Positions 4,381 through 62,989 of a stretch of DNA of 64,000 nt are shown piece by piece (position 1 is the stretch's first letter; every line of letters begins with the position of its first letter). Made by a program: the position numbers and the translations under genes. The notes under the pieces were generated by a model. The model ran no database searches. It was not told the DNA's origin and worked only from the letters and a program-made list of their open reading frames with translations. Source of the stretch: a phage; the sequence record PZ179883.1, one strand, 5' to 3'.

Positions 4381-4405
4381 TAAAAAAGGACTCCCGAAGG
4401 AGTCC
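4381..4405 (-). terminator. rho-independent terminator with UUCG tetraloop
   Basis: Minus strand GGACUCC-UUCG-GGAGUCC followed by UUUUUU; downstream of the 30.9-position ORF. Confidence 0.6.
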
Positions 4406-4410
4406 TCAAC

Positions 4411-7711: not shown

Positions 7712-7741
7712 TTCAATTTCCTCATTTGTTTTGGTAGAGCT

Positions 7742-7770
7742 ATAATATCACAACTCTACCGTAAAGTAAA
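7742..7770 (-). promoter_or_regulatory. early promoter (T4-type sigma-70)
   Basis: Minus strand: TTTACT, 17 nt, TATTAT; upstream of ORF 7184..7711. Confidence 0.5.
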
Positions 7771-11097: not shown

Positions 11098-12685
<1,588 letters not shown>

Positions 12686-12693
12686 AATAAAAT

Positions 12694-12707
12694 GGGCCTT
12701 GCGGCCC
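12694..12707 (-). other. GC-rich hairpin between the denA Shine-Dalgarno sequence and start codon
   Basis: Minus strand AAGGAG-U-GGGCC-GCAA-GGCCC-AUUUUAUU-AUG. Confidence 0.45.
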
Positions 12708-12712
12708 ACTCC

Positions 12713-13882
12713 TTAAAAGTATTTTTTAAAACTCATCATAACTTTATCATCAACATCATTATCAATCTGTGCAACAAGATAAGATGACAGTTCTACTTCT
12801 TGTGGCGCTGATTGAACATTATCAGAATTAAGATATTCACGAATCCAAGGATATGGATGTTTAACCGGAGCATCGGTAATTGGGCATGGAAGACCGCACT
12901 GTTTCATACGAGATACAGTTAAGTAATCAATAAAGCTCCACATGCTATTTGTATTTAATCCAGGAACATCACCATCTTTAAATAAATGAACCGCCCAGTC
13001 TTTTTCTTGGCGGTTAACTTCCATGAAAATATCAACTGCTTCTTGTTCACACTCTTGAGCAATTTTAACCCATTCATCACCATCAGTGCCAAGTTGAAGT
13101 TGACGAATAATATATTGGGTGCCTTTAAGGTGAAGTTGCTCATCACGAGCAATGAACTTCATAATCTTGGCATTACCTTCCATGATTTCCATGTTCTTAT
13201 GGAAGTTAAAGGTACATGCGAAAGATACATAAAAACGAATAGCTTCCAATGCGTTGATTACGTGCAGGCAGAGGTAAAGAGATTTCATTAGTGCTCGTTT
13301 AGTACATTCAACAACTTTGCCTAACTCTTCTTTACGAAATCCTTCTGATAAAATTCCTTCATAATCTTCAACCGCATTCTGATATTCACGAGTCTTAACT
13401 AGAACGTCATCATAATAACGACCAATAGATTCAGCACGTTTCATGATAGCTTTATCTAATACAATCTCATCAAATACCTTTGATGGATCAGTATAAAGAT
13501 TTCGCATAATATGAGTATATGAACGGCTGTGAATAGTTTCACTAAAAGTCCATGTAGCAACCCATGTATCAAGACTTGGGTCTGAAATTAACGACATAAG
13601 TACAGCAGACGGTGCACGACCCTGAATGCTATCCAAAAGTGATTGATACTTCAGGTTATTAGTAAAAATATCTTGCTGATACTGAGGAAGCTTGTTAAAT
13701 TGTGCAGCATCCATCATCAAGTTTACTTCTTCAGGACGCCAGAAAAATGACAACTGCTTTTCGGTTAAATCTTCAAAAACTTTATGACGTTGAATATCGT
13801 AACGCGCAATACCAAGACCTGAACCGAAGAACATAGGTTCTTTTAAAACATCAACTGGATTTGTATTAAAAACTGTGCTCAT
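12713..13882 (-). CDS. nrdB: ribonucleotide reductase small subunit, uninterrupted
   Basis: Continuous 389-aa ORF with di-iron/tyrosyl-radical R2 features; no intron, unlike T4. Confidence 0.9.
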   Translation of the reverse strand: MSTVFNTNPVDVLKEPMFFGSGLGIARYDIQRHKVFEDLTEKQLSFFWRPEEVNLMMDAAQFNKLPQYQQDIFTNNLKYQSLLDSIQGRAPSAVLMSLISDPSLDTWVATWTFSETIHSRSYTHIMRNLYTDPSKVFDEIVLDKAIMKRAESIGRYYDDVLVKTREYQNAVEDYEGILSEGFRKEELGKVVECTKRALMKSLYLCLHVINALEAIRFYVSFACTFNFHKNMEIMEGNAKIMKFIARDEQLHLKGTQYIIRQLQLGTDGDEWVKIAQECEQEAVDIFMEVNRQEKDWAVHLFKDGDVPGLNTNSMWSFIDYLTVSRMKQCGLPCPITDAPVKHPYPWIREYLNSDNVQSAPQEVELSSYLVAQIDNDVDDKVMMSFKKYF

Positions 13883-13933
13883 AAATTTTCCGCTTAGTTA
13901 ATAGATAGTGACTCGTCCATGAGTCAAATTATA

Positions 13934-16198
13934 TCATAATTTACAGGATGAACAATCTTCAGCTTTTGGAGTTTCTATTTCATAATCATCAGTACCAGAA
14001 CCATCACGGGTATTATGATAATAGAAATTTTTTCCGCCAAAATACCAAAAATACAAAAGGTCATCAATCATTATTGACATTGGAACCTTTCCTTTTGGAA
14101 AAATCTGCGGGTCATAATATGTATTCGCTGAAGCTGATTGACATACCCATTTCAGCATAATAGCTACTTGCGTAAGATAAGGTTTATTACCTTTCTTAGC
14201 TAATTTCCATGTATAATCATAGAGGTCTATGTTATGTTCAATATTGGGCACGACTTGATTAAAGGAACCCTCTTTTGATTCTTTAACCGAGACTGGTCCA
14301 CGTGGAGGCTCGATACCGTTTGTACTGTTAGAAACTTGGGAAGATGACTCACATGGCATAAGTGCTGATAATGTGCTATTACGGATGCCAAAGAGCTTAA
14401 GGTCTTCCCGCAGCGCCGACCAGTCACAAACGTATTTTGGAGCTGCGATTTGGTCAATCTTTTTATTGTACCAGTCGATAGGTAATTCGCCTCGAGACCA
14501 ACGAGTGTCTGAATAATATTCGCAAGGTCCTTTTTCTTTGGCGAGCTTAATGGATGCTTTAATGAGTCCATACTGTAATCTCTCAAATAGTTCATGTGTT
14601 AAATCGTTAGCATCTTCATAAGAAGCAAAGTTACTTGCCAGCCAAGCTGCATAGTTGGTAACACCTACACCAAGATTTCGACGCTTTTTAGCTTTTTCTG
14701 CTTCAGGAACTGGATATCCTTGGTAATCCAAAAGATTATCAAGAGCGCGAACTTGAACTTCTGCTAATTCATTAATTTTATCTTGGTCTTGCCAATCGAA
14801 GTTATCCAACACAAATGCAGATAACGTGCACAATCCAATTTCAGCATCAGGACTATTCACATCATTTGTTGGAATAGCAATTTCACAGCACAAGTTACTC
14901 TGACGAATAGGTGCCTTTTCACGAATAAATGGAGTATAGTTATTCGTATTATCAATGAACTGCACATAAATCCTTGCTGTTCCTGAACGTTCAGTCATGA
15001 GCAATTCAAATAGTTCACGGGCTTTAATACGCTTTTTACGAATATTAGGGTCTTTTTCTGCTGCTTCGTATAATTCACGGAAACGGTCTTGGTCTTTAAA
15101 ATAAGAATAATAAAGTTCGCCACCCATTTCATGCGGACTAAACAAAGTAATGTAATCGTTCTTTCCGAATCGTTCCATCATTAGGTCATTCAGCTGAACA
15201 CCATAATCCATATGACGGATACGGTTTTCTTCTACACCTTTGTTATTTTTCAAAACGAGAAGATTTTCAACTTCCAAATGCCAAATAGGATAATAAGCAG
15301 TAGCAGCGCCGCCACGAATTCCGCCCTGTGAACATGATTTAACAGCAGTCTGAAAATGTTTCCAAAAAGGAATAACACCAGTATGACGCACTTCACCTGT
15401 GCCAATCTTAGAACCTTCGGCACGAATCATACCAACGTTAATGCCGATTCCAGCTCGTTTAGAAATATACTCAACAATTGAAGCAGAAGCCTTATTGATA
15501 GACTTCAGCGAATCACCTGCCTCAATAACAACGCATGAACTAAATTGCCGAGTTGGAGTACGACATCCAGCCATAATAGGAGTTGGCAGTGAAATCTGTC
15601 GAGTAGATACTGCTTCATAAAAACGAATAACATGTTTTAATCTGTCAACAGGTTCATCTTGATGCAATGCCATTCCAATAGTCATAAATGCAAACTGTGG
15701 AGTTTCATAAATTTGACCAGTGGTTTTATCTTTAACGAGATATTTTTCTTTTAATTGCATCGCCCCGGAATAAGTAAATTCCATATCCCGCTCGTGCTTA
15801 ATTTTTGATTCTAAAAATGTAATTTCTTCTGCAGAATATTTTGACAACAATTCAGGGTCGTATTTACCTTCATTTACACAGTAAGAAATATGGTCAATAA
15901 ATGAACGGGGCTCATACTGTCCGTACACATGTTTACGAAGAGCAAACATTAAACAACGTGCAGCTACATATTGGTAATCAGGCTCTTCAACTGAAATAGA
16001 ATTCGCAGCAGCCTTAATTACAATGGTTTGAATGTCATCAGTGGTCATTCCATCACGGAGATATGATTTAATATTTTCATATAATTCATAAGGATCTACA
16101 GATGTTCCTTCAGCTGCCCAAGATAAAACTTTAATAATTTTTTGTGGATCAAAGCTCTGAGAAACACCACTACTTTTGATAACATTAATTAATTGCAT
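13934..16198 (-). CDS. nrdA: ribonucleotide reductase large subunit
   Basis: 754-aa ORF, class Ia R1 with C-terminal CxxC tail; length equals T4 NrdA. Confidence 0.9.
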   Translation of the reverse strand: MQLINVIKSSGVSQSFDPQKIIKVLSWAAEGTSVDPYELYENIKSYLRDGMTTDDIQTIVIKAAANSISVEEPDYQYVAARCLMFALRKHVYGQYEPRSFIDHISYCVNEGKYDPELLSKYSAEEITFLESKIKHERDMEFTYSGAMQLKEKYLVKDKTTGQIYETPQFAFMTIGMALHQDEPVDRLKHVIRFYEAVSTRQISLPTPIMAGCRTPTRQFSSCVVIEAGDSLKSINKASASIVEYISKRAGIGINVGMIRAEGSKIGTGEVRHTGVIPFWKHFQTAVKSCSQGGIRGGAATAYYPIWHLEVENLLVLKNNKGVEENRIRHMDYGVQLNDLMMERFGKNDYITLFSPHEMGGELYYSYFKDQDRFRELYEAAEKDPNIRKKRIKARELFELLMTERSGTARIYVQFIDNTNNYTPFIREKAPIRQSNLCCEIAIPTNDVNSPDAEIGLCTLSAFVLDNFDWQDQDKINELAEVQVRALDNLLDYQGYPVPEAEKAKKRRNLGVGVTNYAAWLASNFASYEDANDLTHELFERLQYGLIKASIKLAKEKGPCEYYSDTRWSRGELPIDWYNKKIDQIAAPKYVCDWSALREDLKLFGIRNSTLSALMPCESSSQVSNSTNGIEPPRGPVSVKESKEGSFNQVVPNIEHNIDLYDYTWKLAKKGNKPYLTQVAIMLKWVCQSASANTYYDPQIFPKGKVPMSIMIDDLLYFWYFGGKNFYYHNTRDGSGTDDYEIETPKAEDCSSCKL

Positions 16199-19462: not shown

Positions 19463-19487
19463 TTTATTCTCCTTAGTTGATAAGGCT

Positions 19488-19516
19488 ATAGTATCACTAC
19501 CATAGCCCGTTGTAAA
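19488..19516 (-). promoter_or_regulatory. early promoter (T4-type sigma-70)
   Basis: Minus strand: GTTTACA, 17 nt, TACTAT preceded by TGG. Confidence 0.5.
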
Positions 19517-20538: not shown

Positions 20539-20563
20539 AAAAAAGGGGACCTCTAGGGTCCCC
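20539..20563 (-). terminator. rho-independent terminator downstream of gene 32
   Basis: 7-bp GC-rich stem (GGGGACC / GGUCCCC) followed by UUUUUUAUUU on the minus strand. Confidence 0.65.
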
Positions 20564-32662: not shown

Positions 32663-32668
32663 CAACAA

Positions 32669-32686
32669 GGGGGAAATGCCCCCTTT
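32669..32686 (+). terminator. hairpin after gene 37 (weak terminator or mRNA-stabilising stem)
   Basis: GGGGG-AAAUG-CCCCC followed by only UUU; 6 nt after the gene 37 stop. Confidence 0.35.
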
Positions 32687-32698
32687 GGAGTATAAATT

Positions 32699-33481
32699 AT
32701 GGCAGTAGTTGGAGTTCCTGGCTGGATTGGAAGTTCAGCCGTAAATGAAACGGGCCAGCGCTGGATGAGTCAAGCAGCTGGTCAATTAAGATTGGGTGTT
32801 CCTTGCTGGATGAGTCAATTTGCAGGTCGCTCAAGAGAAATTATTCATACACTTGGAGCAGACCATAACTTCAACGGTCAATGGTTCCGAGATAGGTGTT
32901 TTGAGGCAGGTAGTACACCTATAGTGTTTAATATCACTGGAGATTTAGTATCATATTCTAAAGATGTTCCTTTATTCTTCATGTACGGAGATACACCGAA
33001 TGAATATGTTCAACTGAATATACACGGTGTAACGATGTATGGCCGTGGCGGGAATGGCGGTAGCAATAGTCCTGGCTCAGCTGGGGGTCATTGTATTCAA
33101 AATGATATTGGTGGGAGACTAAGAATTAATAATGGCGGAGCTATTGCTGGCGGCGGTGGCGGCGGCGGTGGCGGATATTATTCTCCTTTTTCACAAATGA
33201 GATTGACCTTTGGCGGTGGCGGCGGTCGTCCGTTTGGCGCTCCGGGCGGATCTATTGATATGCAATCAGGAGCAACTGCTGGTACTATTTCTGCGCCAGG
33301 CGCAGGGTCTGTGAACGGTATCTATAACGGCGGGTCTGGTGGTGAAGTTGGATCCGCAGGGGGTAGATGTAATATTCGTGGTCAAGGATATGAATACGAT
33401 GGCGGTGCTGCTGGTTATGCCGTCATAGGGTCTACACCGACATGGCAAAACGTTGGAGCAATATATGGTCCAAGAGTATAA
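32699..33481 (+). CDS. 38: gp38 receptor-recognising adhesin (T2/T6 type)
   Basis: 260-aa ORF with poly-glycine motifs ([16 protein letters not shown]) flanking variable segments; T4 gp38 is a 183-aa chaperone instead. Confidence 0.82.
33149..33226 (+). repeat. GGC/GGT glycine-codon simple repeats in gene 38
   Basis: GGCGGCGGTGGCGGCGGCGGTGGCGGA at 33149..33175 and GGCGGTGGCGGCGGT at 33212..33226. Confidence 0.7.
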
Positions 33482-37497: not shown

Positions 37498-37528
37498 AGG
37501 GAGAGCCGAGGCTCTCCCTAAAATTACT
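37498..37528 (-). terminator. rho-independent terminator
   Basis: Minus strand GGGAGAGC-CUCG-GCUCUCCC followed by UUUUUUUAUUUU; after ORF 37524..37673. Confidence 0.65.
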
Positions 37529-54867: not shown

Positions 54868-55499
54868 TCAACTACCTCAATATCATACACTTTAAATGTT
54901 CCAAATGAATCGTGTAATTTTTCTTTTGAAATAGAAGTTATTTTATACTTTCCAATTGGAATCATCCATTCTTGTTCACGCACAATCATCATTAAGTTAT
55001 CAGTACGTTCTGAATCTAATCCATCAGTATCTTCATATGTATACTTAAACTCAGTGTTAGGAGAAGAAAGTATAATATCGCTGATATGGTCAGAGTAATT
55101 AAAAGCTTTATCAGTTTTTAAGCGAAATATTATTTCAGTGGAATATTCAACATAAGAAAAACCACATGCTGTGTGCAAACTAGTAGTAAATGAATCTACT
55201 CTGTTCGTTGAAAACACTTCTCCAACTTGTAAATCTTTAATGAGTTCTTTTGTCGATTTTGATATACCACGATATAACTGATAAGGTGATTCAGTTAAAT
55301 GCTTTTTAATGATTTTATTCAACTGCCGATGAAGAGCTTCATTCTTTTTGGCTTCCATACATTGCCAAAGAACTGACTGCTCAAAGTCAGTAAATTTTTC
55401 ACAGACTTTTTTATACATATCATATTGAAAATCGACACTTTCAGCTTTTATAGATAACTGTTCAACATCTGCGAGATTAATAATCATGATAGCCTCCAT
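54864..55499 (-). CDS. modB: ADP-ribosyltransferase ModB
   Basis: Paralog of modA (LYRGI ... STN ... EQEWMIP); true start may be the Met at 55487. Confidence 0.72.
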   Translation of the reverse strand: MEAIMIINLADVEQLSIKAESVDFQYDMYKKVCEKFTDFEQSVLWQCMEAKKNEALHRQLNKIIKKHLTESPYQLYRGISKSTKELIKDLQVGEVFSTNRVDSFTTSLHTACGFSYVEYSTEIIFRLKTDKAFNYSDHISDIILSSPNTEFKYTYEDTDGLDSERTDNLMMIVREQEWMIPIGKYKITSISKEKLHDSFGTFKVYDIEVVE

Positions 55500-55513
55500 A
55501 TACTTCAGAAGCT

Positions 55514-55542
55514 ATCATATCATTGTTAGGAAGGAAAGTAAA
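55514..55542 (-). promoter_or_regulatory. early promoter upstream of modB
   Basis: Minus strand: GTTTACT, 17 nt, TATGAT. Confidence 0.5.
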
Positions 55543-57658: not shown

Positions 57659-57682
57659 AAAAAAGGACTCCCGAAGGAGTCC
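57659..57682 (-). terminator. rho-independent terminator downstream of soc
   Basis: Same 18-nt hairpin as at 4388..4405 (GGACUCC-UUCG-GGAGUCC) followed by a U-tract. Confidence 0.6.
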
Positions 57683-57688
57683 TTGAAT

Positions 57689-62931: not shown

Positions 62932-62989
62932 AACAATCTCCTCATTTAACCAACAAGACTACTATACCATAGTCTTGTCAGCTTGTAAA

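Follow-up and report, generated by a model that had tools for sequence, protein, structure and literature searches.

Organization of the nrdB-denA junction

The window analyzed in this study, a 64,000-nucleotide stretch of phage DNA (record PZ179883.1), belongs to a Tequatrovirus (T4-like) genome. Its nrdB-denA-rnlA stretch was 98.6% identical to the T4 record X04140, and 502 phage records matched this stretch at 95-99%. On the minus strand, nrdB (12713-13882 in the ORF list) is followed by denA at 12275-12685, which encodes endonuclease II, a GIY-YIG enzyme of 136 aa, with an ATG at 12685-12683 and a stop codon at 12277-12275. Additionally, in the region 12713-16198 (minus strand), nrdB was present as an uninterrupted ORF of 389 aa lacking the I-TevIII intron, and nrdA (754 aa) lay directly upstream of it with neither mobE nor nrdB.1 between the two genes. 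A small terminator-like hairpin occupied the nrdA-nrdB gap (13926-13909, minus strand).

The nrdB-denA junction, whose sequence was identical to that of T4, reads ...AAA AAA TAC TTT TAA GGAGTGGGCCGCAAGGCCCATTTTATT ATG AAA GAA... on the minus strand. The two A's of the nrdB stop codon (TAA, 12713-12715, minus strand) are also the first two bases of AAGGAG (12709-12714, minus strand), which was identified as the Shine-Dalgarno (SD) sequence for denA from the sequence and from the conservation of AGG(A) in homologues, and which is located 5' of a hairpin. This hairpin (UGGGCC-GCAA-GGCCCA, 12708-12693, minus strand) is 16 nt long with a 6-bp stem, comprising a 5' arm UGGGCC (12703-12708) and a 3' arm GGCCCA (12693-12698), both recognized by sequence, folding, and covariation, and a GNRA tetraloop GCAA (12699-12702), recognized by sequence and homologue comparison. 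A U-rich spacer, UUUUAUU (12686-12692, minus strand), extends from the hairpin to the AUG; it is free of SD sequences and doubles as a terminator-like U tract. The gap between TAA and ATG was 27 nt, with no ATGA stop/start overlap in the window, and the nrdB stop was only 5 nt from the stem.

The initial annotation had proposed a stable hairpin between the denA SD and its ATG, and this proposal was borne out by the sequence, by the predicted fold, and by compensatory changes in the stem (see below). The folding energy of the 16-nt hairpin was -11.6 kcal/mol. The 39-nt junction folded at -16.4 kcal/mol (z = -4.4), and an 81-nt context gave z = -2.7; in both cases, none of 200 shuffled sequences folded as well. 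The SD-ATG distance of about 26 nt given earlier was approximate, as it is 23 nt from the last G of GGAG to the A of AUG on the minus strand and 29 nt when the count begins at the first A of AAGGAG; looping out the hairpin shortens the former distance to 7 nt. In the minimum free energy structure of RNAfold, G.U and A-U pairs also join GGAG to the UUUU downstream of the hairpin, adding about -4.8 kcal/mol, and this predicted pairing would partly hide the denA SD. A selected pairing between the SD and the U tract, serving to sequester the SD, found no support: the outer pairs consisted of G.U and A-U only, contained no double changes, and scored similarly in controls with slid partners, as would be expected from base composition.

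In the T4 group, the TAA of nrdB is in frame with the ATG of denA and lies exactly 30 nt upstream (window 12683-12715, minus strand), such that read-through of the nrdB stop would fuse NrdB to DenA via a linker of nine codons. The phase between these two codons differs in other genera.

The ATG at 12685 had been put forward as the denA start, and comparisons of homologues, the crystallized construct, and the rarity of upstream in-frame starts all point to this codon. DenA homologues from 17 diverse phages, with identities down to 33%, aligned from the Met encoded at 12685 (MK[ED]IA.E[YF]SFIKY), and the crystallized T4 EndoII (PDB 2WSH) consisted of a His tag followed by MKEIATEY. The competing candidate is a GTG at 12707-12709 (minus strand), which gives the longest ORF in the mechanical ORF list and from which RefSeq NC_000866.4 annotates denA (T4 137517-137951, 435 nt, 144 aa, corresponding to window 12275-12709 on the minus strand). 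X04140 and most other phage records annotate denA from the ATG (136 aa). The GTG had been described as lying 1 nt from the SD, which was incorrect: the codon begins on the final G of AAGGAG and ends on the initial G of GGGCC, leaving a spacing of zero at the base of the stem. Its dismissal as a start, by comparison, held up, because in addition to the zero spacing the codon was absent outside the T4 group; in-frame starts upstream of the ATG were found in just five of the 29 junction variants described below. Moreover, the eight additional codons are the hairpin itself and vary at the level of RNA pairing, not as protein, and the 136-aa protein folds and was crystallized. For these reasons the GTG was rejected, and translation of a 144-aa protein from it can be given hardly any credence. 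The evidence on the start favors annotation of denA from the ATG (136 aa) over the GTG (144 aa), and the RefSeq entry looks like an annotation inconsistency needing correction.

Conservation of the junction in T-even phages

Viral and metagenome contigs were scanned with the protein and by protein alignment, and GenBank phage records were added, yielding 121 loci with sufficient upstream sequence. These loci represented 38 distinct upstream sequences, of which 29 combined a DenA of at least 60% identity with the element. All 29 variants (DenA 60-100% identical) shared the same order of features, namely the nrdB stop, 0-4 nt, AGG(A), a GC-rich tetraloop hairpin, 6-10 nt, and ATG. The AGG(A) was located directly 5' of the stem in 25 of the 27 distinct junction variants that were measured, and partly inside the stem in the other two. 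No SD-like sequence (GGA, GAG, or AGG) was found between the hairpin and the ATG in any junction variant. At least 29 sequence variants, from many T-even genera, have thus kept the element.

Most other genera had a C(UUCG)G loop, and the T4 group had GCAA, or GUAA in a single close relative. All of these are C(UUCG)G or GNRA loops, motifs that stabilize RNA specifically and that are found on the sense strand alone. A function of the opposite strand was rejected, because the plus strand is geneless here and its loop would be UUGC or CGAA, with no stability motif. Natural stems ranged from 4 to 7 bp, and folding energies of the homologous hairpins from -6.5 to -15.6 kcal/mol, the strongest of these values coming from stems that were greedily extended through G.U pairs. 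The tails between hairpin and ATG were rich in U (mean fraction, 0.68), and two lineages with non-U tails (GUAAAGCU and AUAAAGCU) kept the rest of the design.

Covariation in the stem was scored on a loop-anchored alignment, with shuffles and slid partners as controls. Stem pairs at depths 2, 5, and 6 switched among GC, CG, AU, and UA (GC/CG/AU, GC/AU, and AU/GC/UA/CG, respectively). Double changes were present in five of nine stem pairs and in 25 stem cells, compared with 8.9 cells in shuffles, and the covariation score was 0.381 versus 0.202; neither value was reached in any of 500 shuffles. Additionally, 87% of the stem cells were paired, compared with 30-68% when the partner was slid.

The distance between SD and AUG was measured from the AGG anchor in 25 aligned variants. 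It was 20-26 nt in linear sequence and 3-11 nt (median 6) with the hairpin removed. Linear spacings above about 15 nt were taken to be far outside the functional range and spacings of about 4-11 nt to be functional; the 7 nt left at this denA junction after looping out fall in the latter range and are near the optimum. The proposal that the hairpin brings the SD and AUG to a normal spacing is supported by these comparisons and by the likeness to T4 gene 38 described below, both of which argue from sequence for such an arrangement. The standard deviation was, however, smaller for the linear distance (1.1) than for the effective one (1.6), and longer hairpins went with shorter tails (r = -0.65), so the constancy may reflect a small number of indels rather than selection on the effective spacing.

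In most variants the SD overlapped the nrdB stop. Where it was shifted 1-4 nt off the stop (TAAAGGA, TAAAAGGT, and TAAATTAGGAG), it still adjoined the stem, indicating that the SD tracks the hairpin and not the stop codon. The GGAG of the T4 group was not conserved in other genera, in which GGAC, GGAA, GGAU, or GGU was found instead. Early T4 initiation regions carry intergenic GGAG motifs that are cleaved by the endoribonuclease RegB, and the denA junction resembles them in having a GGAG in the initiation region of an early gene. The consensus of strong RegB sites is GG*AGRAYARAA with an A-rich 3' context (PMC3014915), whereas the GGAG of denA is followed by the stem UGGGCC. A strong RegB site was rejected, because the denA context GGAGUGGGCCG misses this consensus and the GGAG is not conserved.

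The split arrangement was found in genera of the Tevenvirinae type but not in Krischvirus, Tulanevirus, or Slopekvirus. In Tulanevirus and Slopekvirus, denA overlaps a different upstream gene. Two further lineages from IMG/VR and ENA contigs, L079 (DenA 72% identical) and L120 (52%), had no hairpin and carried an ATGA overlap of the nrdB stop and denA start (..KKYL* / TTATGA); translation confirmed that their upstream gene is NrdB, ending in ...KKYL*. Since these two lineages dispense with the element, it is not indispensable, and coupling to nrdB can suffice. Their junctions amount to a natural 'deletion mutant' of the element.

In the Krischvirus RB49, the hairpin was farther from the AUG, and a canonical SD (GAGGAAAGGA) was located 3' of the hairpin and followed by the ATG. 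About 50 nt upstream of denA in RB49 (L043/L044), where the upstream gene is different, a GNRA hairpin (GGCGGGA-GAAA-UCCCGCC) follows UAAGGUG; the AAGGUG 5' of this hairpin coexists with a proximal SD, a point against initiation across the denA hairpin. The RB49 layout may be a relic of the split arrangement or a precursor to it. Taken together, the natural variants provide a ready mutational series, including UUCG versus GNRA loops, stems of 4-7 bp, the ATGA overlap, and an SD placed 3' of the hairpin.

Proposed initiation across the hairpin and alternative explanations

Hairpins that bridge SD and AUG have been described for T4 genes 38 and 25, in which SD-AUG distances of 22 and 27 nt are cut to 5 and 11 nt, respectively, and destabilizing mutations in these split-site structures lower initiation (PMC3014915). 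The gene 38 site (gcaTAAGGAGAGGGGCTTCGGCCCTTCTAAATATG) has an upstream stop that overlaps the SD, a UUCG hairpin, and a GGAG-AUG distance of 22 nt, and it closely resembles the denA junction. In both cases, the TAA of the upstream gene (gene 37 or nrdB) overlaps the SD in TAAGGAG, a GC-rich tetraloop hairpin starts 0-1 nt past GGAG, and the AUG is reached after a short tail free of SD sequences; GGAG and AUG are 22 nt (gene 38) and 23 nt (denA) apart, or 5-6 nt and 7 nt with the hairpin looped out. In both, the stem predicted by RNAfold also takes in the 3' half of the SD. As this extension is predicted for the validated gene 38 site as well, it provides no argument against a functional denA site. 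The two sites differ in their loops (C(UUCG)G in gene 38 and GCAA in denA, although most other genera have UUCG in the latter) and in their tails, which is UUCUAAAU in gene 38 and the U-rich, terminator-like UUUUAUU in denA. Moreover, gene 38 is a late gene and denA an early/middle gene, and the gene 38 split site is backed by mutations whereas the denA site is a candidate recognized from its sequence.

Gene 25 resembles denA in that its SD (AAGAGG) and AUG are parted by a hairpin that reduces the distance from 27 to 11 nt. Its arrangement is kept in close T-evens and absent from distant T4-like phages (PMC3014915), and the denA layout is likewise confined to the closer T-even relatives. Unlike that of denA, the hairpin of gene 25 (CUCAAAG-AGUU-CUUUGAG) is rich in A and U and lacks a special tetraloop, and the stop of gene 26 overlaps the gene 25 start, not its SD. 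The denA hairpin also resembles the intercistronic C(UUCG)G and GNRA hairpins and terminators of T4, which occur just past stop codons and on the sense strand only (PMC7165471). At the other T4 hairpin junctions, however, the SD lies 3' of the hairpin or there is no next gene, whereas at denA the SD lies 5' and the AUG follows after 7 nt.

The position of the SD was unusual within the window and in T4. Six other minus-strand junction hairpins were found in the 64-kb window (42971, 42007, 41778, 39322, 20207, and 3526), and in all of them a canonical SD (GAGGA or AAGGA) and an ATG came, in this order, after the hairpin; within the window, denA alone had an SD on the 5' side of a junction hairpin. 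About 146 kb of T4 contained 20 hairpins with a C(UUCG)G or C(GNRA)G tetraloop and at least five Watson-Crick pairs, and an unpaired SD tetramer abutted the 5' side in one case, that of denA; purine-rich 5' arms therefore do not produce an AGG(A) as a matter of course. A blind census, covering the window as well as about 146 kb of T4, for an SD, a hairpin, an SD-free tail of 3-12 nt, and a start codon returned 14 sites. The sites at annotated starts with no SD 3' of a real hairpin were those of gene 25, gene 38, and denA. At gene 30.6, the hit arose from an alternative pairing that covers a normal proximal SD; the remaining hits were internal ATGs. The recovery of both experimentally validated cases, genes 25 and 38, indicates that the census works.

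On the basis of this sequence evidence, we consider it reasonably probable that the nrdB-denA junction is a hairpin-bridged ('split' or 'accommodated') initiation region of the gene 38 and 25 kind. The SD AAGGAG abuts the stem on its 5' side, and the AUG lies 7 nt beyond the stem on the other; folding would loop out 16 nt and convert a non-functional spacing of 23 nt to about 7 nt, so that the 30S subunit could pair with the SD across the folded hairpin and the AUG would be placed in the P site; we infer such use of the denA SD by the ribosome. The 7 nt between hairpin and AUG leave no room for a promoter, and every denA message is therefore transcribed through the junction. It follows that a very stable tetraloop hairpin is always present in the denA leader. 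The hairpin probably also acts as a partial intrinsic terminator or 3' stabilizer of the nrdB mRNA, in a secondary and non-exclusive role. Ribosomes ending at the nrdB TAA would transiently melt the stem and may feed re-initiation, and translational coupling to nrdB may contribute to denA translation.

Alternatively, the hairpin might be solely a Rho-independent terminator or attenuator and a stabilizer of the nrdB 3' end, with AAGGAG lying next to the stop incidentally and denA made at a low level from read-through RNA with no functional SD, for example through S1 on the U-rich tract. The GC-rich tetraloop stem followed by UUUUAUU means that the hairpin could exist for reasons of transcription or RNA stability alone. 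This explanation agrees with the U-rich tails of the homologues, with the records of two related genomes, phage G8 (-15.3) and PhAPEC2 (by ARNold), in which the hairpin is annotated as a putative terminator, with the many such hairpins that punctuate T4 transcripts (PMC7165471), and with a weak internal terminator demonstrated nearby in mobE (PMC2790892); in addition, EndoII, as a nuclease, is probably needed in small amounts. Nevertheless, it leaves unexplained both the unpaired AGG(A) on the 5' side, which was found in nearly all variants and in denA alone among the 20 T4 hairpins, and the missing SD on the 3' side, which the six other hairpin junctions of the window possess. The two lineages with non-U tails also speak against it, as does the nrdB stop 5 nt from the stem, where a ribosome would be expected to hinder folding of a terminator. 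The built-in terminator scan did not call the denA hairpin; this miss was probably due to greedy stem extension through G.U pairs into the U tract and was not taken as evidence against a terminator. Considering both sides, we regard a role confined to termination and stabilization as unlikely. We found no report of RNA 3' ends at the U tract of the denA hairpin in the literature searched.

The overlap of the SD with the nrdB stop in most variants would also suit an explanation in which denA is translated mainly by termination-reinitiation: ribosomes ending nrdB at the TAA would melt the hairpin and, tethered by the SD, restart at the AUG 27 nt downstream, leaving de novo loading across the folded hairpin a minor route. 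In line with this explanation, two independent lineages (L079 and L120) have swapped the whole element for an ATGA overlap, denA of Tulanevirus and Slopekvirus overlaps its upstream gene, and the lack of room for a promoter means that nrdB and denA are always on one RNA. However, a tethered 30S subunit cannot span 23 nt unless the hairpin refolds, and the bridge would still be needed; the SDs displaced 1-4 nt from the stop yet adjoining the stem, and the demonstrated dependence on structure of gene 38, which has the same layout (PMC3014915), likewise make reinitiation improbable as the main route. A further candidate for the SD is the AAGG at 12700-12697, which straddles the loop and 3' arm, is 11 nt away from the AUG, and would be used after the hairpin melts. 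X04140 (1986) annotates two ribosome_binding_site features for denA, AGGA (within AAGGAG) and AAGG, without choosing between them. This second site of Sjoberg et al. was rejected, because both of its G's are paired in the -11.6 kcal/mol stem and it depends on a GCAA or GUAA loop, which confines it to the T4 group and leaves all C(UUCG)G variants without it; its use is very improbable.

Returning to initiation across the hairpin, a broader version would give the junction three coupled jobs, as a partial terminator and 3' protector of the nrdB RNA, an obligatory bridge in the denA ribosome-binding site, and a sensor of nrdB translation. We consider this combination rather unlikely. If it were true, a ribosome at the nrdB stop would open the stem, suppressing termination and momentarily breaking the bridge, while the 30S subunit stayed on the SD, and the output of a nuclease directed at host DNA would be set by the translation activity of ribonucleotide reductase. 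An SD placed 5' of a terminator hairpin would then be a general solution of T-even phages (denA and gene 38), keeping a terminator or stabilizer inside a zero-length intergenic space.

A T4 review cites just two hairpin-bridged initiation sites, those of genes 38 and 25 (PMC3014915). The denA junction most likely represents a third such region in T4 and a twin to that of gene 38, as judged from its sequence, the mechanism itself being already established. In the searchable full-text literature, which excludes older key papers that may hold an earlier mention, we found no report of a split denA ribosome-binding site, of a terminator after nrdB, or of the EndoII N-terminus. A third site, in front of a gene whose nuclease product initiates the degradation of host DNA, would mean that this trick is not confined to two late genes. 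It would also be a warning for gene callers and ribosome-binding site calculators, since rules of linear SD spacing misplace such starts, and terminator predictors label a bridging hairpin of the denA type as a terminator.

Other structured elements in the window

No curated Rfam family matched at threshold; the best match was L20_leader, with 24.7 bits against a gathering cutoff of 58.7 (window 12678-12804, minus strand; E = 0.009 for the 401-nt search). This sub-threshold match was most likely driven by the denA hairpin and its U tract, and it was treated as chance.

Gene 38 of the window encodes an adhesin of the T2 type (260 aa). Its junction (32666-32701, plus strand) consists of a hairpin, CAAGGGGG-aaatgc-CCCCTTTG, with GGAG next and the ATG 8 nt further on. 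With its SD on the 3' side of the hairpin, the site is not split as in the T4-type gene 38.

Additionally, a 14-bp hairpin was found at 55485-55519 (minus strand), TATGATAGCTTCTG-aagtata-TGGAGGCTATCATG, whose 3' arm contains both an SD (GGAGG) and an ATG. This hairpin may be a structure that sequesters the SD and AUG, and the 211-aa ORF that starts there is probably a modB homologue. Strong tetraloop hairpins on the minus strand at 37498-37519, 20545-20563, 4386-4407, and 57663-57684 were followed by 4-7 U (four U at 57663-57684); these four are clear terminator candidates, different in kind from the denA junction. Long AU-rich hairpins of 11-15 bp were located on the minus strand at 7733-7760, 19483-19508, and 62948-62983, 10-20 nt upstream of canonical SDs, and these three could be 5' stabilizers or processing sites.
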